A stretch of 63,266 nucleotides of DNA, counting the filler, from Atractiella rhizophila (Eukaryota): NCBI GenBank assembly GCA_021432655.1. It is 10 parts of 10 records of this genome, joined end to end, with 100 filler letters (N's around TTAATTAATTAA, not from the genome) between each part and the next. Parts side by side here need not be neighbours in the genome. Positions count along the whole stretch, not along the records: positions 56,869 to 63,266 come from MU272301.1; 9 more parts are not named here. One strand, 5' to 3'. This document shows, one piece after another, positions 5,246 to 63,215 of this stretch (position 1 is the stretch's first letter; each line of letters starts with the position of its first letter). Made by a program: the position numbers and the translations under genes. The notes under the pieces are model-generated. The model made no database searches and was not told where the DNA came from. It saw only the letters and a list, made by a program, of their open reading frames with translations.

Positions 5246-6538
5246 ATGGCAGCCCCAGTCGATCGCAAAGGCCAAACGGAACGAGCATTGGAGCAGATTG
5301 CTGCCCGGTAAGTCTCGTTCCCGCAACGGAGTGATCTGAACTCATGCCTGCGTGGATACGATCAGCAAGGCGAATCTAAACGAGAGTGTCTCTACCTCCG
5401 ATTTCACAATCGTTATTCAAGATGATGGGACCGAGGTATCCACTCAGGAAAGGGTGGTGAAGGAAGTTCAGGCACCAGCTTTCTACAAACCGACAGACGA
5501 ACAATTCTTCTCGAGCACGGATAAGACCAAACCCGATGTGGCTTTTTTGAAGAATCACTTTTATAGGGAGGGGAGATTGACGGAAAAACAAGCGTTGTAT
5601 ATTTTGGAAAAGGCGAGCGAAATTTTGAAGAGAGAACCCAACCTACTCACTGTCGATGCTCCTGTAACTCGTACGCTTTCTCTTCCAATTCATGTTTGTG
5701 AATGGACGGTAATGGGTGAATGGTTGGACACAGTTTGTGGTGATGTGCATGGTCAATATGTGCGTCTCATCCCATCAAATCGCAACGAATAACTGAAGCT
5801 GTGCTGCCTTCATAGTACGATTTGATGAAGCTTTTCGAAGTGGGAGGCAATCCAGCTGAAACACGTTATCTTTTTCTCGGCGATTACGTAGATCGTGGCT
5901 ACTTCTCGATTGAGGTTTGTCTTTCATTCATCCCAGATCCAAGACAGAAGTTGATGCAGAGTCTCCGTCGGGTGGCAACAGTGCGTTCTCTATCTGTGGG
6001 CTTTGAAGATTTGGTATCCCGACACTCTCTTCCTCCTACGTGGTAACCACGAATGCCGGCATTTGACAGATTATTTCACCTTTAAGCTCGAGTGTATGTA
6101 CATCCTAAGCCTTGGTAGTAAGTCCGGAACTCGGAGACGCTGAGATTGGGTCACAGGCAAACATAAGTATTCGGAACGAGTGTATGAGGCGTGCATGGAG
6201 AGCTTTTGCTGTCTCCCTCTCGCCGCTGTCATGAATAAACAATTTCTATGCATCCATGGTGGACTGAGTCCCGAACTTAACACCCTCGACGACATTCGGA
6301 AAGTGCGTGGTTCGAAGTTTCTTCAATCAAGACAGTTGCTGATCGAGGATGCCGATATACAGATTGACCGTTTCCGTGAACCTCCTACTCAAGGAATCAT
6401 GTGCGACATCCTCTGGTCCGATCCGATCGAGGACTTCGGCTCTCCGGACCATCAAGACCACTTTGTGCACAACCATGTTCGCGGTTGCTCCTACTTCTAT
6501 ACGTTCGTCATTCCCTTTCCATCATTGTGCCTTCTGAT
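5246..6538 (+). CDS. CNA1: Calcineurin A catalytic subunit (PP2B), truncated at the scaffold end
   Basis: [115 protein letters not shown]. Confidence 0.97.
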
Positions 6539-6638
6539 NNNNNNNNNNNNNNNNNNNNNNNNNNNNNNNNNNNNNNNNNNNNTTAATTAATTAANNNNNN
6601 NNNNNNNNNNNNNNNNNNNNNNNNNNNNNNNNNNNNNN
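6539..6638. other. Artificial scaffold-joining linker (44 N + TTAATTAATTAA + 44 N)
   Basis: Identical 100-nt spacer with stops in all six frames. It recurs at 13176, 19807, 26422, 33010, 37134, 43707, 50260 and 56769. Confidence 0.97.
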
Positions 6639-6815
6639 GTTAGCCTCTTCCATACATTCCCATTACATCTCGCTTATCTATGGGGCATCCTCTCAGCTCT
6701 CTATCCCTTGCGGCCATACTCCATCTTACTGCCATCGTATCCACCACTTGATTGGGCCTAGGTGATACGCTGATTCGTGACGTGTGTCCTTCTTTCCATC
6801 ATTAAACAATTTGTT

Positions 6816-9028
6816 CTAAGCCATTAAGTCGCATTCTGATCTTCTCCTGGCTATGGGACAACGAGCCAATACTTCTGACTTACGCTCACTTTGCGTTGGG
6901 AAGGGGCATTGTTGGAAAGATTTGCCAGAAGAAACCCGCTCCGCACTCCAGCATGAATTCTCTACGCAACGGTGGATCAAATTGAGCCACCTCGCCACAA
7001 TCTTTTGCGTCTTGCAGCTCAATTCATATCAGTGGATCCTGAATCAAGACCGTCGCTGGACAAATTTTTATCAGGGAGAAAGGAAAAAGAGAGCATTGGA
7101 ATCAGTCGATTGGAAATTTTGGATTAGGAGAGTGAAAGCAGAGAAACTCAGATTGAAAACCTTAAAGGGAGACGTCTCATTACTTGTTAAATCTGAAAGA
7201 CGTGTTCGAAAAAGTGTTGCTTTTTTGTCGTTTTCAGCAACCATCGGACCTTCGAAGTTATCCAAAACAAGAAGACATTTTTGACTTCCGAAGTAGGTGG
7301 CCAGGTTCTCAAGTGAGGTCTTGCTAGACTGGGACAGCACGAAGATATCTTTGCAAATGTGGTCCAAGCCTGGAAATAGTGAAAGTTGTCACAGCGAACC
7401 CAGAAGCTGAAATCTTCTCGAAGTGCAACGGTGGATTTTCCATTTCCAGCTCCACCGACAATCACGACGTGGAGGCGGTTAAGTATAGGTTCTCTGGCAA
7501 ATTGGATCTCAGCCTCTCCCCAAAGCAAGATCCTGGAGGTGGTAACGGATACCTTGGACGGACTGCAATCCGTTCACTGCACACTATCGGACCATCGACA
7601 TGATGTCGAAACAGGAGGAGAAAGATCATACCTTGAACGAAGTGGTCTGTAGCATTGGAAGTTTCATGACCCATATATGCCTTCGTACGGTCGTCCACGA
7701 CCTGGTTCGATCCCACTCCCACTTTATGCATTCCACCGTATGGACGGAAAAGCGATGGTTGATCTTGCACATCATCATTTTCACCCAATTCGCTACACGG
7801 CAGCCATCCTCGATGATGGCCTTCACAGCCCCCTCAACCTTAGCTATTGTTGTCGGACGCAAAGCGAAAGTTAGGACATCAAGGATGGACAGATCTTCCT
7901 GTGCTGAGTGAAGAACTCGTAAGGTCTCATGAAGTAATCATGAAGATGTGAAAAGCGTAACTTGTAGTTTGCACATCATGACAAGCCGTCAAAGATGTGT
8001 AATATAAGCACTTTCTGGCAGTAAGTTGCATCACTGAGAAGGTTGATGGCGCCGATCCAGAACACCTTCGAAGATGCAGCCGCTTCCAGTAACAGGTCTT
8101 GGATGGATGGATGTAGATGACCAATCCTGAGCTTTGACTGAGGCTCTCAGAAAGATGAAGATGATAGACTGATAGACAGATATCATGAAGTACAGGGTAG
8201 TAAACAACAGAACCAGGTCACTTTTATTGCAGAGAACTCACAACGAACGTGAAATCCTGCAGACTGTGCACAAGCGGAGCAGTCATCTCTCTAAAGATGT
8301 TCATCAGTTTTGCAGGGCCAATATGCATCTGTCATGGCATGTACGCAATCGTTCATTATATCTCGGACAAGCTGCAGAGAGTGGGCTTATTCCTGAGCTG
8401 GGCAGACAGTGAAGGTACATCGTAGTCTGAGCCTCCCTATTTTCAAATGGATCAAACTCTGCATTTGACTGTGCAGGGCACGGCTCATTTCAGATAATTT
8501 TCCAACAACAGTGTACTGATCCCCCCCAGGCTCACAAATCTACATTTCGTAACTAAGATGAACTGGCCGTACCTCTGGAATAATGCGGAACTCAAAGCTC
8601 ATCAGCTTTACAGCCATGCCTGGTTTCTTCGAAGGAGAGCTAAACGCTCGATGGTGTGGGGATGTTGGTGGTGACGACGATCGAGGTAGCCGAAAGGCAG
8701 GATGTCCATGTATACTGGCGCATGCATGACTGTGCGTCGATGATGGCTGACGCTGACAGTTGTGGAATGCCTGATAGTGGAAAGAGGAATTCTCCATTCT
8801 ACGAGGTATGGTCGCAATGCGGTGATGGGCAAAGTAGCACTCGCGTAGAAGACACTCGCGTAGAAGGGATATCTTGGGTACTATCTCACTCCCTCGTATT
8901 TCGAGCAGATCAGCTGAGCTACTGGAGGATGTGAACCGGCGACGAGGTGTGGGGTTGAGAGGACTTTTGGGGAGGAGGATGTCGCAGTGTGGAAATGCCA
9001 GGTCAGCTGGTTCAGCCATGGGTATCAT
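6816..9028 (-). pseudogene. Degraded STAND/NB-ARC-type (fungal NLR-like) P-loop gene
   Basis: Walker A LHVVIVGGAGNGKSTVA and FWVRCD lie in ORF 7187-7528. Walker B KCLLVLDNFEGP lies in a different frame (7071-7367). Upstream helical and S/P-rich fragments are broken by stops. Boundaries are uncertain. Confidence 0.6.
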
Positions 9029-9773
9029 GGACTGCTTCCATCTGCATCATACTGGTCGGATGGATTTATTCATATCTATGACACAAGGAAATAGAGAAGT
9101 GAGAAACTGACAAGTCAACCGGCGTACCTACAGCGCTATCTGTTCAAGTTTACCTGCCTCTCCTAGGTTATTTACAACTCCGGAAAACCAGTGTCTTCAA
9201 CAAGCTAGGATCTAAAATTGCCTCCTACTTCCCCATCGGTTCCTAACTGGTTTGCTGTTACTTACTATCTTACTTTTTCTTTGAAGTTTCTAGAACAATG
9301 TTTTCACAAGTATATAAAGCCTCCAAAAAACCAAACAATAATTATTACATTCTACAATAACAACACAAATAGCCCTAGATCAAAACTGTGGGAACAGTTT
9401 TAGGTTTGGCACACTTGCTGTGACGAGTGCCTGCACAGTCGTTCCTTTCTCGCTTTACTATACAATCCAAAGCAGTACTCCATGCTAGCGTGGGTGATAA
9501 CTTAGAATCGAGGGTAAACAATTCATGTTGCCATGAGCCTGACGCCATGGAAGGAGGTAAATAGACACAGAAGCATGATGCAGACCAAGCTGTGCTCCCA
9601 AGAGACGCACCGTGACGTAGGCACATAGAAAAGGAGACTGTGAGACTGAAGAGCGTGGAACAAATTAGAAACGGCTCAATCATGAAAGGAGAAAGAATGC
9701 CCCAAGTCCATTTCTTGGCAGCGGTCGTTGTGCAAGTCGGTTTTTGACCGGTTCGTCTTCCTCGTCTTTCGCC

Positions 9774-32973: not shown

Positions 32974-33109
32974 GCTGCAGGTTCGGAAACGTTTGAGACT
33001 GAGAAGGAGNNNNNNNNNNNNNNNNNNNNNNNNNNNNNNNNNNNNNNNNNNNNTTAATTAATTAANNNNNNNNNNNNNNNNNNNNNNNNNNNNNNNNNNN
33101 NNNNNNNNN

Positions 33110-34429
33110 AGTTCCTTGTGGGGACTGGGCATTGGGATGCCGCGGCTTATGGAGTAAAGAGGGTCAACCACGAGGGCATAGCTACGGTGTTGTTCAGCTA
33201 GGCCGAATGTAAGTCAGTGGAGAACAAGGCGTTGTTCCCTACTCTGGACATCGTGGAGACGGATCAGCACGCTTGCATAGGGTCCTAGGGGTTATAGAAG
33301 TCATGAAGGGTGTCCGCCGTCCAGGGCAGTCTAACCGTCGCGGGGTCATGGTTGTTATAGGAGGAGAACACCGCTGAGGCTTAGTCTAAGCTATACACGT
33401 TTGCCTCGTCCCTGAGCAAGGACATTGTAACAATCGCGTTGGGCCTCCTAGCGTTCTCATAGTGGTAGGAGTTAACTACGTGAGTGTCGTACAGCCGCAC
33501 GGACGACGGGTTGGAACCTAACCCGGAGTTCTAGCGGCAAAGAGTTTGCCTATACGTTATGGAGTCGTATCATGGAGTCGAGGACCTATGAGTTTACCTC
33601 ACTGGCAGCGTTAAGGGGTCCAAGGGTACTAACCAATGGGAGGGCGCAGGTGCCCCTGCTACCGCGTTAGAAATGGAGTCGGAGGAGTTGCGGGCGGAGT
33701 GTACGTTGTTTTTGGAGGCTGAGGTTTTTGGAGACTACCTTCGTTTCTTGCACCTCTTCTTTTAGTGCTTTTTAAGCGGACGTCGAGGAGGCCGAGTTAG
33801 AGTTGGACACTACCGCGGTAGTCGTCTTGTACAACAGCCCGTAGTTAGGGTAGCAAGGGCAGTACCTAGGTTCGTACAAACAGAGCGTTTTGGGACCGAG
33901 TAGGAGGCGTCAACCTAACCGACGATTTGTAGGAGGTAGCAAGGGAGGAGGAGTGTACTGCTACGGCGGAGTCGTACAGCATGTTTGCTACTCTCGCAGT
34001 GGAGAAGACCGGTTCTCTAGCATAGTGCGCTACCTTCCGCGTGGCTACGGGTGACAGTTGGGTTTCCTTGACGGCTGGGGATAAGGGTACAAGCTAGGGA
34101 CGGTAACCTGTAGCCGGCGGTACGTACCGGGAAGAGGGCGGAGGTGTCGTTGGTAGGAGTGGGGAGTACGATTGGGTAGCGAGGAGGTGTGATGGGGAGG
34201 TCTTCAAAGAAGTCTGAGCAGTTGGGGGCGAAGGAGCGAGAGCTTACCAGGCAGAGGAGTGTTGGGTGAACGAACACGTTATGGAAGCCAGTCAGGCGGT
34301 CCCCGGAAGGGAAGCTACTGCCACCTTGTCTACAGAGTCGACTCCTTCGCATTCTACCCTCTCTACGTCCTGCATCCTTGTAACTTACTGTTACCCTAGT
34401 TCTTTAGTGCAGACCCGTACTTGTGTACT
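33110..34429 (+). CDS. Cryptic gene 3' part, visible only after complementing: P/Q/S-rich protein with basic C-terminal NLS-like motifs
   Basis: Complement translates QGTPLTRNPTAPNTSFLPVGAPVSMPQQVDPAYIQSPLVPQQ...MSQLRKRKMGEMQDVGTLNDNGIKKSRLGMNT*, with two apparent single-base frameshifts near 33730 and 33840. Confidence 0.75.
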
Positions 34430-34994
34430 TGTTAGCAGCGTAACTTATAAGACCTAAAAGAACCTATTTTTCCTAGTCTAGCAAATTACTAAGGATTACA
34501 AACAGAATAGCAAGCTAACTTATCCTCAACACGGTACACTCTTACGCAACACTGCTTATTGACCAAATCGAACAAAAAGTCTAAGCGTACAGCAGGAAAA
34601 ATATATAACGAATACTAAAGCTAAAGCTCCTTTCTTCACAGGGCTGCACCAAAGAAGTAGCAGTTATCGAAGTAATAACATCGTTATTGTAGGAGTTTTA
34701 CTATGTATGTAGGAACCTCTCATAGATCCTTCTTTTGGCTAGGAAATCCCGCTCTAACATGAGTCTTATTTAAATCTTCCCCTTTTCCCGCACTTTGAAC
34801 TGTATTGTTCTTTATTACTGTTAATTTGTTCCGACCTCGTCAAGGCTGCTAGGTAGCTACGAGATGTTAAGGACTGAGAGGAGGTGACAGACGAGGTTTC
34901 AGAGAAGCACAAGGGGCAGAACGAGGACTCTGAGCAGAGGGAGAGGGAAAGGTTGGTAAAGGGTCTCGAAGCCGACCCCAAACTGGAGCTATAG
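33110..34994. other. Block complemented in place (not reversed); hides the 3' parts of two convergent genes
   Basis: The base-by-base complement read left to right gives long P/Q-rich coding sequence ending at TGA 34427-34429. Reading the given strand backwards from 34994 continues ORF 34989-35498 in frame. Confidence 0.9.
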
Positions 34995-36700
34995 CGGCTT
35001 CCCAAGTCCAACCCTATTGAACTGCGTCCGAGCTGATAAGTTCTGGTCCTCAAGCTTCTTCTTCCTCCGCCGCCGAGAGAACGAACGGACACCGGGTTGA
35101 GTCTTGAGTCGTGGTGTAGGAAGTCCTTGCGACATAGCTTGCTGCATGGGTACCTGAGAAGGCATGACGGGAGCAGAGAGGGCATGAGACAAAGGAGCGA
35201 GCGACGGTTGAGTCGACGCCTTCGACATCCAAGTCGGGAGCTGGTCGGCATGAGCGTTGGGGGCGGGACGAAGCGGAGTAGGCACTGCCTGAGCTCGCGG
35301 ATCTGTCTGGAACTGACTTGGTGGTCGCATAAGAGGTGTTGGAATAGCATGCTGAGCACCGTTTTGGGTAGCTTTCGAAGACGTAGGTGCGTAAGAGGTC
35401 CTCGCCAAGAAAGGCGAAGAAGACGGTAGTTGATTAGATGAACTAATCGCAGGAAGGCCATGGAGTTGCATCGAACCTGTTGGGAATACGATCAACAAAA
35501 AAATTTGAGTTGGAACTCCAAGACTTTACCGTTTAGCTGCTGCAAACCATATCCTCCGTATGGCATTCCAGCTGCATTCGGAACAGGAGATGCGGTTTTC
35601 AACCCCTGACCTTGTCCTGCATAAGGCGTTCATCAGCACAACACAAGTCACGGGGCGAAGTAGCTCGTCCTACCATAACCCATGTTCTGATTGTGGATGT
35701 TGGGCACTCCCTGAGCCCCATAGTTCATTTGAAGATTTCCATTCGGGTTTATATTGAATTGAGGGACAGGCGTCATCCCTATTCTCGGCTGCGGGTAAGT
35801 TGCCGGAGGTCCTTGAGATCCTAATCAACGTCTGTGAGCTGGTTCTCTGGGTGCGGAGGTTGTGACCAACCTCCTCCATTAGCTCCTGTCCCATTTCCAT
35901 ACCCTAACATGCCATTCGCAACGGTCGGAGCTTCAGACCCTTGAACTGGAGCCTGAGGGAATTGGCATTTTTGCCCCGGGTGACCTTCCCGTTCACCGTC
36001 AACGCTTGAACAGGGAATGAAAAGGAGACGAACCGGATGTGTCCTTGGTACTTTGAATGGGGACGAGACCCATAAAACCGCTCGCCTTCGCCGACACTGT
36101 CGAAGTTGACGTCGGCTGTACGGATTGTTGTCCTTGTCCCACGGCGGTTTTCGGGGTAGGCGGTTTGAAGTTGAAGAGATTTTCATCCTCAGCCGATTTT
36201 TCGTTGGTAGTACCACTACTCTGAATAGAGCTGAATAAGGCCAAAAAGTCCTCATTGCTCATACTTCCGGGTCCCGCGACGGCGGGCAAGGATGACAGAG
36301 CGGGAACGGGGTCCGAAGTTGTCGATGTCGATGCACCGAAATTGGAGAGGTCAAGGTCGAAGAGATTGAAGTTTCCGGCGTTGTCTTTGAGGGAAAGAAA
36401 GATGTTCTCAGACCCACGAACTCGTTGACGTATGACACAAACGGCGACTCACCCGTGCCCAGATTGTCCAAGTTGGATAAAAAATCATCTCCAAAGTTCT
36501 GTGGCAGGGACGGGAGTGCAATGTTGTTTCCTGTAGCGACATTCGACAGGCCATCCTGATTTCCTGGATCTGGAAACAGCTCTGCAGAGAGCTGCGCGAA
36601 AATACTGTTTGTGGTCACTACGGGCCCTTGGCTAGGGAATAAGGGGCGTACTGTTCGACATCCAACTTTTCCTCCATCTATGCGATATGCTGCTGGGCGT
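34863..36700 (-). CDS. Low-complexity (S/Q/P/N) multi-exon protein of unknown function; C-terminus lies in the complemented block
   Basis: Exons ...PSLPQNFGDDFLSNLDNL, FNLFDLDLSNFG, MSNEDFLALFS, PMQQAMSQ...RRRRKKK...VGLGKP, then in the corrected sequence DIEVKPQPKLWEMV...EESQEL*. 5' end uncertain. Confidence 0.55.
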
Positions 36701-55171: not shown

Positions 55172-55520
55172 TTGAATGTTCATATTTCTTCATTCAGTGA
55201 TCATGTGTACTCAGTCCCTGTTAAGTTCGTGATTCTGTTTACCTTCTGGACTTTGGACTGATCAGTTACGTTTTTCCTGTTTTCACTTGGTTGATGTCAA
55301 AATAAGATAGATGCTCTTACCAATTCCAGCTGTTATCTCACTTTCCACTTCAAGCTTTCTCGCTCGTGAATAGTGTGGCCTTTCTATCTCATTTGTGCTG
55401 TTTTATAGCCACCACCAGCTGTGATCAGTCCAAGGCTGCATTTTTATTGATACATTTTCCATCTCATACTCTGTATAAATTGAATACATATCTTAGACTC
55501 ATATTGATATGCTCCCTGCT

Positions 55521-56768
55521 TCATAGAATCTTATGGAGCTGCTCCAAAGTCATTGGCAATCCGCAAACCCGGTTTTCGCACACTCTGACGTTTGGTTCTA
55601 CCGCCTCCTTTCCTTCCAGAGAAGCTAGCAAACCTTTCACTGTCTCGTTCCTGTCTCGCAACAACGCTGACGGATTCTGTGGGTCGACGTGGATGAGCAC
55701 TCGATTTGGAATGAATTTCTTCCTAATGGCGGCAAGAAGCTGACTTGTTTTCTCATCGCAGATGGGACCGTATAGTAGGAACTGTGGAAGATTTCATCCA
55801 CAGTGTCGGAATGGAAGGAAGAGCAGAAGAGACCCACCTCTCGCGCCCCTTTCTCTTTCATCCACATTCCACACACTGTTGTCCCGAAAGCCCTCGGGGC
55901 TTTCTTCAACATATCTTTATTTTGCTCCAATATCAAGTCGCACTTCTTATCCCATTCTCCAGTTTTATCATGGAAGAAAGCGGCGAGCCGCTGGAGGTTA
56001 CTCAGAGCGATTCCGTTAGCAGAGGGTTCAGCACCATCCTGAGAGTCCTTCATTCGAATCTGTGTCCTCATGCATTAGGTACATATCGGGGGATGAGAGG
56101 AATGGAAAAGAAAAGTGTACCAGGATGGAAGGATCGGGGGGAGAGTTAAAGTATCCTCCCTGACCATCGTCCCAGAACTTGTCGTCCAACGTCTGCTGCA
56201 ACTCCAGCGCAAAGGCGAGGTACCGGTCATCAAAAGTGCGTTCGTATAAATCGAGCAGACCTGTCCGTCATTTCATATTGTAGTTTCATGTCGTATGACG
56301 AGGAACAGATAAGCAGACCTTCTACGACGAAAACATAATCATCGCTTTGACCCCTCGGTCCAACCCTTCCATCTCTCCAGCTCCTACACAACTCCTTTGC
56401 TTCTACGTTCCACATCTTCTCTTTTATGAACCTCACCGCCTCTTCCGCAGCTCGCACTCCCACTTCAGAGGGCGATTGGGCAAGGGCTGATATCATCAAG
56501 CCCTGCCAGGCGGTTACGATTTTATCATCAAGATGTGGTCGCGGTCGGCGGTCCCGCGCTTCTTTCAAAGTCGCTAGATTCGTGATGATAGCATCGGGAA
56601 GTTGGGAAGGGTGAGGGTCGGTTAGGACTAACATGTTCTTCATCCAAAGTCAGCTGGTCTCTTTCGATTGTAGCACATACAGATGAAGAGAAAACAAACT
56701 TTCCCTGTGAGCTCTCCATGCGGATCGCTCTCCTCTTCGATATTTCCGTCTTCTTTCACTCCAAACAT
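55521..56768 (-). CDS. SPATA20/YyaL-like (thioredoxin + six-hairpin glycosidase-like) protein, C-terminal part
   Basis: RRPRPHLDDKIVTAWQGLMISALA, GQSDDYVFVVEGL, FWDDGQGGY, DGAEPSANGIA..NL.RL, VCENRVCGLP. Confidence 0.88.
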
Positions 56769-56868: not shown

Positions 56869-58774
56869 ACCTCCATTTGCTCTACCTTCGCCTGCTCTTC
56901 CTTTTCATCTTCCACATTGGGTAAACTGGCATCCAACAACGTCCTCCACCACATCGTGACAGGCGGTAGCAGGTGTGCTGGAGTCTCAAGGAGCTGAAGT
57001 GCCCGCTCTTCCCTCTCCTTCTTCTCCTTGAGGTCTCTCCAACCTTTCGCATCCGGCACATCGACCATCTCCTCTCTCGTTGCCGTGAGCTCTGCCCCAA
57101 AAAGATCCTCAAACAAGCTCCGCTGTTGGGGTTTCGAGGTAGAGATAGAAGATAGGGACTGGGTTGTGACGTTTAACATGTTTTTCCTCACGTCCTCACC
57201 CAGCATCACTAGGTCTCCTGAGGTCGTGATGCATGCGAGCACCAAAGCATACGTTGTTGGATCGAAGGAATAGACGAGGGCTGACTTGATAGATTGCGGA
57301 TGGCTAAATTTTCGGATATCAAACGATGGCTCGGACGTGACGCGAATTAACTTGATTTTGGTACGTGTTTGCTTGGAGGCATCCGTGGACAGGAGGACAA
57401 AGAGGGGAGAAGGGACCGAAGGCACTATAATTGAGGTAACTGGGTCAAACGAAGTCCAAATTGCTGTTCCAGCCAAACGTCAATAGTCAACCAAGGAGGC
57501 AACGGAGGAAAGGATCTCACGTTCCCACGTCCTGAGATCCCATCCCACTGCCCCAGTCTCTCCACCGGCAACTAAGGTCAGATTATCTTTTCCTACGAAC
57601 TTAACATTGCGAGCAATCACTCCTGCGGTCGGTAGGCTCTTTACGAGCGCGTTCGTAACGCTGTCCCAGATTGTGACCGTGACTCCATGAGCAACAGCAA
57701 AGAGGGTGCTGTCATCAGAGAATGCAGACCCAAGTGCCGGCAGACTTCTATGAGTGAAGGAGGCACGACAGCGCCAGCTCGCACCTGTATAACGCTTAAA
57801 ATGACAAGGATATCGAGATCAAACGTACTTCGGTTGTTCCCGTCTAATGCCCACAACTTGATCTCGCCGCCTTCTGCGGTGGTAAGCAGGAGCGGAGCAG
57901 AGTCAGTGTTAGAAGCAAATTCCAAACGGATCGGCCGAGAGAATGAGAGGGACGTCAGCGGACCTTTGTGTGGATTATCCACACGAGTGTTAACACGGAA
58001 CCTGGACAACGATCAGAATTGTAGACAACAGATATATTGTAAACGCACTCAAAGGAATTACCCTTGACTTTCCAGAACTTCAGAGACGCCTCTTCACTAA
58101 ATCTATCCTCCCTATCCTGCCACCTCTCCATAGTTGCAAGCCACCGAACACCGGTTTCCTTCTTGAGATCCATCTCTTGACTGATAGCGACGTGTTCCAC
58201 AACTGTTTCGGTGATTTCGTCTTCGTCTCGACGAGTAACGCGATTAGTTGGTGCCACACTGAGCTCGTATAGATTTGAGTTAAGGGAGGGAGAGAAGAAT
58301 TGAAGCGCTGAGGTGTTTGACGAGGGGAAGATCAGGGTCGAAGTCGACTGATGCAGAGCTAACGGCACGCTTGGGCATGCTGACTTTGCAACTGTGGCAG
58401 CTTCAGATTTGAGGGCAGGACGAGAAGAAAAGCATACTCAGTTTGACGCCTCCAAGGCGTCGTACCACCCTGCGATCTGCAAGCCAAATCACACTTCCAT
58501 CTTCGAGGCCAAGGACGATCTCAGTTGATTGGTCCTTATTCGCTCCCATGTATACTCTCGAGCTACCCCGAATCCAGGCACCTTCACCTCCCAGTCGTGG
58601 AACATATTCTCGATGGTCAAAGTTGTTTGGATTAAGTGGCCATTTCACGAGCACTGCTTCTTCTCCAATTGATAAGAGGCCAGAAGTCTCGTTGAAGGTT
58701 GGGGCAAGTTTGCAAGCATGAGCATGCCAATGCAGCCCACGAGAAGGCACGGAAATCTTCTCTGAGAAACGAGC
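56869..58774 (-). CDS. UTP17: U3 snoRNP WD40 protein Utp17/Nan1/WDR75, C-terminal half
   Basis: LHWHAHA, LLSIGEEAVLVKW, YVPRLG, LQFFSP, WLATMERW, LKFW, NTRVDNPHKG, SLFEDLFG, PAHLLPP. Confidence 0.88.
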
Positions 58775-58799
58775 NNNNNNNNNNNNNNNNNNNNNNNNN

Positions 58800-61018
58800 T
58801 GAAGGATACGAAACAACTTTGAACCGACACTTTGACACTTAGTGTTCACGCCTCACATCAAGGCAGTGTTAGTGGTTGACAGGTTGCCTCCTTTACTGGA
58901 CCGTAAGTTTATTGGGTTTCCTTGTTGTTAGCTTCTATACACTGAGCGGGGAGTTTTCGCATGTCGCTAAGAAAACTAGTTGCGGAACAAGACCGTACTT
59001 CCGTAAACCAACGTGGTTTAGACGTCCTAGTTTAAACTCTCACTAAACCCTGATACGAGGTTACAAAGGAAAGAGCTTTGCGTCTTTGTCTTCTTTGTCT
59101 GACGGGATCGCGCCCAGGCGCGTACGCTCAGTCCGTGTTGTCCCTAGTACTATTGCGCAACCGTCCAAAGACGAGCGCTTTCCTTTCTTTCTGTGAGTGG
59201 AAACCCATAATACACAGGAGGTCTGGGGGGTTTTACGGGTTTTTGGTGCTTCGACACCAGCAAAAAACTTGCGGAGCAACATCTTCTGCCGCGGACTGTA
59301 AGTCTTACGCGAGTTAGGAATACTTCAATTATAAACCCAAGGCTTTGAAACCTTCGTGATGCGCTGGATGCTAACAAGGACAAAGAGGACGACTAAACCT
59401 TCCGAGCAACGTCGTGGAATATTAAAAAAAAACCGGAAATGAGCAATAGCCCTTCGAGGAATGCTCGTCCGAACAATGCGATAAGAATGCGTAGTGCTTC
59501 AATGGTACGGATGTTTTGGGAACGGTGGATTTCTGCGCCTCTCCGGCTTTTTCAGACCAGAACCCTTCAGATGTTTGCTGTTGTCTCGTCTCCCTGACCG
59601 TAATCACTCCACCTCCTCGGTTGTTGACCACTCGTGCAGAGTTTCGGCTTCTTTTTCTTCGTTTTTTCGTTCTAACCCTGGCACCTGCTTCTCCCTCTAC
59701 ACTGGTACCGAAGTCAGCTCGGCCGTCGACTCTAGTTCGGTTACCCGCTACGACAGCTCAGACGATTTCTAGACCTCGGTTGTTCCTTCTTCTTCTTTTT
59801 CGCATGCTTCTTTGCACGAGTCTTACTCCTGCGACGGTTGCTGTGGCAGCGAGGAAGGCGACTTCCTCTTGAAGACTTCGCTGTTGCGGCCTTTCGTTTC
59901 TTTTCGTTTGTCCAAGTCCTGCAACTTCACTGTCTTCTCGAGTGCGAACGACTACTTCTAGAGAGGCATGTTTAACTCCTCGGGCGTCTTGGTCGAATGC
60001 TCCTGCGTTTTCGTCAACCTGCTGCACGCTTCGTCTTCCGACGGTCTAACCCACTGGTCGCGCCGCATACCCTATAGTCACTGCTGCTTCCTCCACATCT
60101 TCTCCTTCACCTTGACCTCTCCCTCCGCGCCTTCTGCTATCTTACCCTTAGCTAGTGAAACGACCCACCGCGCTCTCTCTTCCTCGCCTGCTTGTTCTAG
60201 CTCCAGCTTTAAAGTCTCCTACCTTCCACGCGAAAAGTGGAGCTGCTCCAAAAGAAACGAGTGAGCGGCCGTAATCTAAGCAGAAGGTAGGACAACGTAG
60301 CTAGTATGTGTATATGAGCAATGGACTAGATTGGGGACAGAGACACGACAAAGGAGGTTGTAGAGGAAGCAGTCCGAGAGTCTGACAGGAAGGCGGTCGG
60401 AGCGGTCCTCTTCAGTGAAGGGAAAGAGACGTGGGTGTTTTAGGCGACGTTGAGGAACAACCTATGAGGAGTCCGAAATAAAAGCAGACCCTAACCCACC
60501 TACCTTGCCAAAACTTGCACTAACTACAAGTGTATCACGAAGGTCATCTTCTCGTCCTCGTCTTCTTCGACTTCTTCCCCTTTTGCTCTACCCTGCAGGA
60601 GTATGGAGCCCTAAGCGAACCGTTCGAGTTCTTGGTCTAACAAAAGCCTCGGTGGCTCCAAAGGTGTGCTTTCAGACTCCAGGTTGCTAGGAAGCAACGG
60701 TAATATAGGTGGAGAGTTGGAGAGCGAGGAATGAGGTTCCCGCTATTCCCGGCTAGTAGCGAAGAGAAGTTCGAGCCGGGACTGACACGGCGCTTTCGTG
60801 ATACAGTGAGAGCGAGCGTGTGTCAGCAGTACTGGTGTTGGAGTTAGCAGCAGGAGGCAGGTCCATTTTTTGACGTGAAATGTCGGGTGGACCGGTCGGG
60901 TCCGCAGCCAGCTGGTAGCAGAGACAGTCAGAGAGCTAGGCCACTACTCAGGTGGCAGCTTTCCTCGGAGTCGTAGCGACACAGCCTAAGAGTCCCGTTC
61001 TGAGTGTCAGAGATACAT
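58800..61018. other. UTP17: Block reversed in place (not complemented); contains the promoter and 5' half of UTP17
   Basis: Complement read left to right: ATG at 59506, K/E-rich stretch, GT-AG intron 60227-60276, then FVFHPVASIIHIYSL...VTSLSLHPQNPLQLLVGYSSGFIFVWDWVDG...IAVSDSQGK. Right boundary is approximate. Confidence 0.88.
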
Positions 61019-61149
61019 GTTATCAAATCAAGTTCCAAGGAGTGGGAACGGGAGATAATAGACATCACACTATCTCCCTTACTTCTTCAGAACTACAGAT
61101 GGGTTCTTTTAGCGTGTCAACTGACTTTTCCGGGCCAGCGGCCATTTAA

Positions 61150-63215
61150 ATGGCAGATCAGCTGGTTATGGAACAGCCCATGGACTTTGATGAAAATATG
61201 AGCCCTGAATCAGGGCCAACGCAACCTGAAGGTAAATTCACGTCGCACCGTCGTCCCATCTGCTTAGATTGTATTGTGTCAGACGGGGAGTTGTGTAAAT
61301 ACCTCAAATTCGATCACGATGAATCCCCTATACCTCTCGGACGCGCGGGGCTATCCTCGTGGAATGAAGGAAATGGATTCCTCCAGGAGGAAGCATCTCC
61401 TGCCAGCGAATATCATTCTCATGGTAAGTCACGTCGCCGATGGACGAACATGACCTTGACTATTTTCTAGACGCTTGCATGGACTCGATCGAGAACGCAA
61501 CGGGAACAACGGAGGAGTTGTCTGTCAATGAAACCATTCGAGGTGCCCAGTCATTTCTATCTCTCATACACTACTCAGACTACCGTGCAGTCAAGGAAGA
61601 GTTCTTGAGATCACGTCAAAACGACGAAGAGGAGTTCGTAACCTACGAAGAGGACGCTACCTCTATTCAAGGTATGTGGATTTGTCGCCTGTCCTTCTTT
61701 CACTCAAATTTCGTAGCCCTTCAGCAGATGATGGGTTATCTTAAACGCACGGCTCGCAAGGGGAAACTATCTCAGGAAGTTTGCTTTCGTGAGTTTATCA
61801 TCACCTTCTGCTTGTTATCCATACTGAACAATGCGGCCAGACTTGGGTAAGGAGGTCCTGAAGGTTGAGGAAGGGCTTCTTAATATTTTTCGACAATGTC
61901 GGTCTTTCCCTGCTACTTTCCCTCTGAATTACTGATGCTCCCATCAGACGGCGCCGTTGCGGTGTACGAGATTATGCTGAAGCGAATGCCCCTTTACGCT
62001 CAACTAGAAATTTTCCGACTGGAGAGTTTGAGCAGCTTGGGCATCACCGAAGGGACAACCCCAGAGCTGGCCGAAGACAAATCGTCCTCGGAGGACGAGG
62101 AGGATGAAGCGATTGGTTCGCATGCTGTGTTTTTGGTATTGCTTTGCGACTGATCGTTTTCTCAGTGTCACCTTGCAAACAAGAGCTTCTCTCCTCCCGA
62201 GAACAAACCCCATGCGAAACTCCCTCTCCCAGATTTGGTGAATCCCAACCAACTGCCTTGGGTGCTCCCCACTTATGCTGCGCCTGTGCTTAGCTTCACC
62301 CTGCAAGCAAGAGCGATCGTTCGCTCCTCCAATCACTAGGTCGACATCTCTTGACACAACAGCCTCCTTACAACTGTCGAACACTAAAGCTCAGCAGCAG
62401 GCCTCAAATCCTCTTTCCTATCCCCTAACATCCCAAATCGCTCCCAATACCACAAAAACGGGAGGATGGGAACAGAATGCTTTGAATATCTTACCAGCCC
62501 CTGATTGGATAGCAAACGTGAATTTTAGGCTTTGGTTGCTTGCTGGCACGTCTGATTAGGGATACAGGAGGATGACGTGCTATCGGAGTTCGCTCATCCT
62601 GACACCGTCCTTCCTCTCACCACTGACAAGTCCAAGCCCATCTATTACCAGCATACACCAAAGGAAGGATCCGTTCTATTCGCCATGCCACAAGATCCAT
62701 CATATTATCCCATCTACCGAGCTCGGAGATTTCACGAAGATGAGGCAATGAGGGAACGATACCCACCCATGTGCGAACTGGTGGAAGATGTCGCCCAGGT
62801 CACCCAATTGCACGCTGAGTTCGACAATCGACAGACCAACATCTTTTCCGACAGCACCAACACGCTGTTTGTTCGCCTCCGGCCTGAGCGTTTCGATCAG
62901 GTTTACCTTCGAAAAAAGTCGATGAAACCGGAGAATGCCCAAAAAATCAATCCACTCAACAATGCCAACGTCTGGCTGAGGGGACAACTTGCTCGTCGAC
63001 CCAACTGCTCCACGAGGCGTGGATGTCGGCAGTTCGAAGCGACTACGAGGGCGTACCTAGGACGGGATGGAAGCTTTCGCCGTGTGCCGGAAGGTACAAA
63101 GAAACCTAGCGATATTCGAAAGCACTTCAACGGAGAAGATGACGGACCTCCATGTGGACGCATGGATATTGATGAGGACTATCGAATCATGAACATCCTC
63201 GTCGACGCTTGGTAA
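61150..63215 (+). CDS. Hypothetical multi-exon protein; may continue past 63215
   Basis: MADQLVMEQPMDFDENMSPE, followed by GTAAAT/GTAAGT/GTATGT donors, acidic exons and a 212-aa open exon. No family recognised. Confidence 0.55.

Follow-up and report, generated by a model that had tools for sequence, protein, structure and literature searches.

Where is the 5′ half of the UTP17 gene on the last scaffold of the window analysed here? The window is a stretch of 63,266 nucleotides in which 10 small scaffolds of the Atractiella rhizophila assembly (G000: 51 Mb, 1,998 scaffolds) are joined by 100-bp linkers; its last piece, scaffold C1122, carries native exons for the C-terminal part of the protein, which end at a gap of 25 N. 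Utp17, known as Nan1 in yeast and as WDR75 in humans, has two WD40 propellers and is part of the UtpA complex in the SSU processome, where its role is nucleolar and involves binding of the 5′ ETS. A sequence-only reading had proposed that the DNA to the right of the gap is written in reverse order without complementation (a mirror block) and holds the missing half of the gene. We find that this block is almost certainly an assembly artefact, a data error and not a feature of the organism; there is no new biology in it, and the locus beneath is an ordinary UTP17/WDR75 gene.

Coordinates of the features discussed in the text (positions in the window unless a scaffold or locus is given)
Feature	Position	Strand	Description
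Scaffold C1122	56869-63266		last piece of the window; sole internal gap is 25 N at 58775-58799
Native 3′ half of UTP17/WDR75	56869-58774	-	residues 492-1061, LHWHAH, second propeller; four introns
Residual gap	58775-58799	.	25 N where the allele has 33 bp coding for P0002 residues 481-491, IHVLNFDIPTY
Mirror block	58800-61000	.	2,201 bp; true sequence reversed without complementation; matches C216:40782-42974
Donor-like motif AAG/GTGAGT	59191-59202	+, read backwards	G+1 at 59199
UTP17 exon 1	59506-60226	- once corrected, complement left to right	ATG and ~238-aa Lys/Glu-rich low-complexity N-terminus
Frameshifts	59574-59592	.	two 1-bp insertions relative to the allele, ~59574 and ~59592
GT-AG intron	60227-60276	-, as complement	50 nt; identical at C216:42201-42250
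UTP17 exon 2, 5′ part	60277-61000	-, as complement	residues 240-480, first WD40 propeller
Native sequence	61001-61149	+	true left neighbour is base 58800; within 852-bp head-to-head spacer
Neighbouring gene	61150-63064	+	resembles P0003, with no family above cut-off; X3 has 9 spliced joints; right end approximate
Second mirror block	33110-35118	.	G000:C1118:2456-4464; reversed in place; right of 1,326-N gap
Mirror block	L002:743-3541		allele on C158
Mirror block	L007:4342-6308		allele on C54
Mirror block	L057:2758-3567		allele on C284
Candidate mirror segment	L054 ~6440-7008		mirror/natural test only

A block of mirror text and its allele

When all four readings of the block are translated, long ORFs appear in the complement read left to right, and no UTP17-like text is found on either true strand. 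A Markov model that treats both strands alike was trained with the suspect blocks left out and applied in 500-bp windows. It scores the block as mirror text at -17 to -25 bits per 500 bp, compared with mostly +5 to +40 elsewhere; it also calls the region at 33110 mirror text, and almost all of the remaining windows natural. One further window, 9001-9500, scored -8.6 bits and was taken as noise, a larger model making no mirror call there. The odds of ApT are 0.42 for the block, against a background value of 0.97.

The genome has a second, intact copy of UTP17 on scaffold C216. Identity to this copy is 98.7% for the complemented block, 98.0% for the left flank and 98.8% for the right. Of the 2,171 31-mers of the block as written, none occurs in this allele on either strand, whereas 1,592 of the 2,171 taken from its complement do. 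Since base 58800 corresponds to C216:40782 and base 61001 to C216:40781, the two must be adjacent in real DNA, and comparison with the allele places the other end of the block, base 61000, at residue K480, with 33 bp missing beneath the 25 N. The proposal that the block is reversed without complementation is thus upheld by the allele, the 31-mers, the Markov test and the run contigs described below. Its extent, given as 58800-~61018, is right at the left edge only: the block stops at 61000, 18 bp earlier, and 61001-61018 is native.

C1122 is a second-haplotype copy of the C216 region. All five small scaffolds compared have a larger counterpart with 94-99% identity (C1122/C216, C1118/C291, C1005/C54, C1000/C158 and C955/C284); both haplotypes have therefore been kept in the assembly, and gene counts are inflated. 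Elsewhere in the window, the minus strand of 55500-56768 has exons with text such as KIVTAWQGLMISALA, which we take to resemble YyaL/SPATA20 thioredoxin-domain glycosidase-like proteins.

Sequencing runs across the block

Four sequencing runs were compared with C1122 (X1 to X4; X1 and X2 share a sample, and each of the runs may be kin to the source). The best of them contain 0.51 and 0.50 of the sampled words, against a ceiling of 0.65 if the block as written does not exist. Depth is zero in all 10 bins from 58795 to 60934 in all four runs, although X4 is sparse and covers just 9 of 30 bins, so that its lack of cover over the block carries no weight. The contigs of X1, X2 and X3 cover both flanks and break at 58774 and 61001, where their loose ends go on in unlike letters. 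To the left of 61001, the 30 letters are those of 58800-58829 backwards in each of the three runs, and the loose ends behind 58774 code for the missing segment, apart from strain differences; compared by eye, the loose ends of the runs differ from C216 in 3 of 30 letters. No single run contig covers the whole of the corrected locus and 30 letters are visible per loose end, so it is the allele, not the runs, that supports the join of 61000 to the 33-bp segment. Mapping of reads to both new junctions had been suggested as a check, and reads in favour of the orientation given would have spoken against the proposal; the X1-X3 contigs instead break at both junctions as written and continue in the corrected order. 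Spliced joints are visible in contigs of X3 and X4; no run is recorded as RNA, but X3, being spliced, is RNA-derived.

The gene beneath the block

A 1,112-aa protein, P0002, was found with the native exons left of the gap. The C216 gene with its intron spliced out is identical to P0002 in all 603 residues compared, and P0002 is therefore apparently the assembly's own C216 gene and not independent evidence; the idea that P0002 and P0003 stem from an independent assembly was dropped on the same ground. Independent support comes from the sequencing runs and from 47 other homologues (P0004-P0063, 820-1,200 aa, of 150 listed), from which a profile was built with P0002 left out.

The complement of the block has the ATG at 59506, the intron GTGCGC...CATTAG and an ORF that contains the WD40 text HPQNPLQLLVGYSSGFIFVWDWVDG and ends at IAVSDSQGK, all as the sequence-only reading had it, and the block does hold the 5′ half of UTP17/WDR75, residues 1-480. 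Matches to P0002 residues 1-24, 30-264 and 239-484 have 92-98% identity (E 1e-125 to 1e-149), and P0002 residues 1-484 match the block's complement only. Among the four arrangements tried, reversal in place is the only one that brings all P0002 matches into line on the minus strand; neither the complement in place nor the reverse complement in place yields a collinear gene, and with the latter nothing matched residues 1-480. Reversal in place makes the gene collinear, as had been anticipated, but does not make it intact: the 33 bp are missing, and the two 1-bp insertions in exon 1, probably consensus errors, cause the frame from 59506 in the block copy to stop after 65 codons. The block also differs from the allele by one in-frame 3-bp insertion, which may be allelic.

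Alignment to the N-terminal propeller of Utp17, on which the proposal had been staked, is supported by the 47-homologue profile. The complement ORF scores 58.8 bits (E 4e-18) at profile positions 83-169 of 967, which are N-terminal to those of the native exons, and positions rise along the corrected gene from 83-169 to 312-854; none of the other non-native ORF pieces among the 233 scanned exceeds 3.3 bits. The expected order relative to LHWHAH holds as well: the HPQNP segment aligns to human WDR75 residues 60-96 and LHWH to ~244, and a C-terminal TPAH stretch, alone not significant, aligns to 731-786. After correction, the N-terminal propeller, the HWH motif, the second propeller and the TPAH segment follow one another collinearly along the gene. 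The native 3′ half is cut by the scaffold end, and its spliced joints are visible in X3.

Family assignment follows from the whole protein. The native exons left of the gap match both WDR75 Pfam models, PF23769 falling below its cut-off piece by piece, and the block part alone matches generic WD40 Pfam models only. P0002 scores 75.7 bits for the second propeller (PF23769, cut-off 27) and 38.7 bits, under the cut-off of 45, for the first (PF23869, E 9e-10); all five of the profile homologues that were scanned pass both models. In a one-way search, the closest characterised relative of P0002, and its best match among solved structures, is human WDR75 (PDB 7mq8 chain LH, E 9.7e-21), the next match being Prp17 at E 5.6e-4. 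Like its relatives, P0002 has PF23769 above cut-off and HPQNP followed by LHWH in the order of the human protein; unlike them, it has a ~238-aa Lys/Glu-rich N-terminus, whose segment in the allele has no Pfam match, and a divergent first propeller. Its HWH lies at residue 505, compared with a median of 328 and a range of 175-539 in 45 of the 47 homologues. Neither the long N-terminus nor the divergent first propeller stems from the artefact. By the tests run, all at the level of sequence, the gene is classed as an ordinary Utp17/Nan1/WDR75 whose N-terminus is long and charged and whose first propeller is divergent.

The head-to-head neighbour

UTP17 and the gene at 61150 had been expected to diverge, and in the allele they do lie head to head, with 852 bp between their ATGs. 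The donor-like motif that was said to point towards the 61150 gene does occur in the allele, 549 bp ahead of that gene's ATG, but the inference of a divergent promoter from it does not hold, as a donor is no evidence for one. Since the X3 contig begins just 93 letters before 61001, splicing from the motif is not visible there, and counts of donor-like hexamers, 7 versus 8, do not separate the readings. A hidden small gene at the motif was considered: none of the three spacer ORFs has a Pfam match, and a 115-aa ORF across the motif has an Atlas score of 0.78, which leaves such a gene without support and its absence unproven. The X3 joint at 62237-62292 is apparently read through by the P0003 model, and the gene model may be wrong there.

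Other mirror blocks

The block at 33110 had been read as the opposite type of error. This is refuted by its allele on C291, where base 33111 corresponds to C291:42941 and base 35119 to C291:42939; this block, too, is reversed in place. Both blocks had been described as starting right after an N run, which is true at 58800, whereas the run before 33110 is a linker; in C1118, the block nevertheless follows a true 1,326-N gap. At 33010-33110 the window omits C1118:1-2455, that is, 1,129 bp and the 1,326-N gap, and it has only 10 pieces although C1112-C1122 are 11 scaffolds. The complement of 33110-35118 has a 282-codon Pro/Gln-rich ORF, open at 33111, which seems to continue a native minus-strand gene right of 35119. 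A protein search with the gene beside this block found no relative, and the block was settled by the allele.

Recurrence was assessed in 90 sequences with 764,622 called bases, comprising 60 small scaffolds whole or nearly whole, the first 10 kb of 20 large ones and the 10 pieces of the window. Six mirror segments were called, all at a gap; four are new, all on small scaffolds, and the starts of the 20 large scaffolds (first 10 kb each) have none. Mirror segments are thus present in four of the 80 scaffold samples and in two of the 10 pieces of the window, in a sample biased to small scaffolds that gives no genome-wide rate. All five blocks tested against alleles are reversed in place, join one flank with base-exact precision and touch a gap.

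Within the L002 block, 369 bp at L002:2006-2374 are absent from the allele; read backwards, this insert has TG...CA ends and a 4-bp duplication, and presumably resembles a solo LTR. The insert matches C288 and C121 as written, and both of these loci score as mirror. At L103, no N lies within 1.5 kb of the match to the insert.

How the blocks may have arisen

The N runs that remain beside the blocks are close to the number of allele bases missing (904/907, 1326/1338 and 25/33), and 25 N are also found where the extension overlaps the far flank, by ~18 bp and by ~1.8 kb. Of the 25-N gaps, three of four (the focal gap included) border a mirror block, compared with 3 of 27 other gaps (p 0.016). 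Over 8,154 bp of blocks there are 19 one-base insertions and 3 one-base deletions, and over 19,559 bp of flanks 22 of each (binomial p 0.0009, Fisher p 0.006). These counts were made relative to the other haplotype and so have real allelic indels mixed in; one block, L007, contributes 10 of the 19 insertions. Insertion-biased single-base errors are the profile of a noisy long-read consensus, and gap leftovers would be set to 25 N by PBJelly. A flank is continued into a shrunken gap in all five tested blocks and the insertion bias is present, as in a long-read-type fill; the error profile suggests a long-read origin of the blocks, and a PBJelly-like tool is a plausible candidate for the gap filler.

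Starting from the observed geometry, base-exact joins, gap arithmetic and recurrence, we posit that a captured gap of ~2.2 kb lay over the promoter and 5′ half of UTP17 on C1122, and that a gap filler lengthened the right-hand contig into it by 2,201 bp. The N run would have shrunk to the remainder, 25 N for the true 33 bp, and the extension would have been pasted with half of a reverse-complement operation. In the simplest case, a minus-strand consensus would have been complemented and not reversed, which equals the plus strand reversed and not complemented. PBJelly extends flanks to reduce gaps, also overfills them, and counts runs of at least 25 N as gaps (English et al. 2012, PMC3504050). 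Its fills and the blocks have in common extension into a shrunken gap, overlapping fills and an error profile like that of a noisy long-read consensus, and may also share the 25-N smallest gap; in the accessible part of that paper, output that is reversed and uncomplemented, as the blocks are, goes without mention. In the accessible parts of the literature, including PMC3504050, PMC8848313 and 10.1101/029199, we found no description of a mirror-block fault, which is weak evidence and leaves its absence from print unproven.

The same artefact could have come from a short-read gap walker that extends leftward base by base and never flips the string; this would change the tool and not the status of the block as an artefact, and we regard it as improbable. 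Such a walker would produce the same reverse-in-place geometry from a single fault, and four of the five tested blocks do lie to the right of their gap. The fifth lies to the left, although a later flip of the scaffold could explain this, while the insertion excess fits a noisy long-read consensus instead, and the overlapping fills that end in 25 N match the gap definition in the accessible text of PMC3504050. Very improbable is a fault after assembly, in file conversion or in the joining of the window, such as a case-sensitive reverse complement of whole scaffolds. In its favour, the comparison was made with a copy of the genome whose C1122 is identical to the window piece, and the joining does drop sequence, as the absence of C1118:1-2455 attests. 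A whole-scaffold flip that skipped letters would, however, leave blocks complemented in place; all five are reversed in place and each was therefore handled as a unit, and the block edges coincide with gap edges and the blocks have an error profile of their own. A real rearrangement, whether an inversion or a genuine mirror copy of the DNA, has nothing in its favour beyond the written sequence and can be practically dismissed, given that the reverse complement in place matches nothing in residues 1-480, that the block does not match C216 as a reverse complement, that 0 of its 2,171 31-mers as written occur in that allele, that the runs break at both edges and go on in the corrected order, and that, to our knowledge, no templated polymerase makes a mirror copy.

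Implications

BLAST, gene callers and read mappers all miss mirror blocks, which pass for gene-free or strain-specific DNA and yield false truncated genes. It is conceivable, though we consider it rather unlikely, that the half-applied reverse complement comes from a long-read gap filler in wide use, not from this one project, and that mirror blocks of kilobase size lie next to gaps in many public draft genomes. If so, real genes would be hidden from six-frame search, annotation and read mapping, and the blocks could be found by a natural-versus-mirror k-mer test and then read. For findings beside an N gap in this genome, the mirror reading should come first. As for the organism, its UTP17 is ordinary and intact on C216, and the block is without biological consequence.
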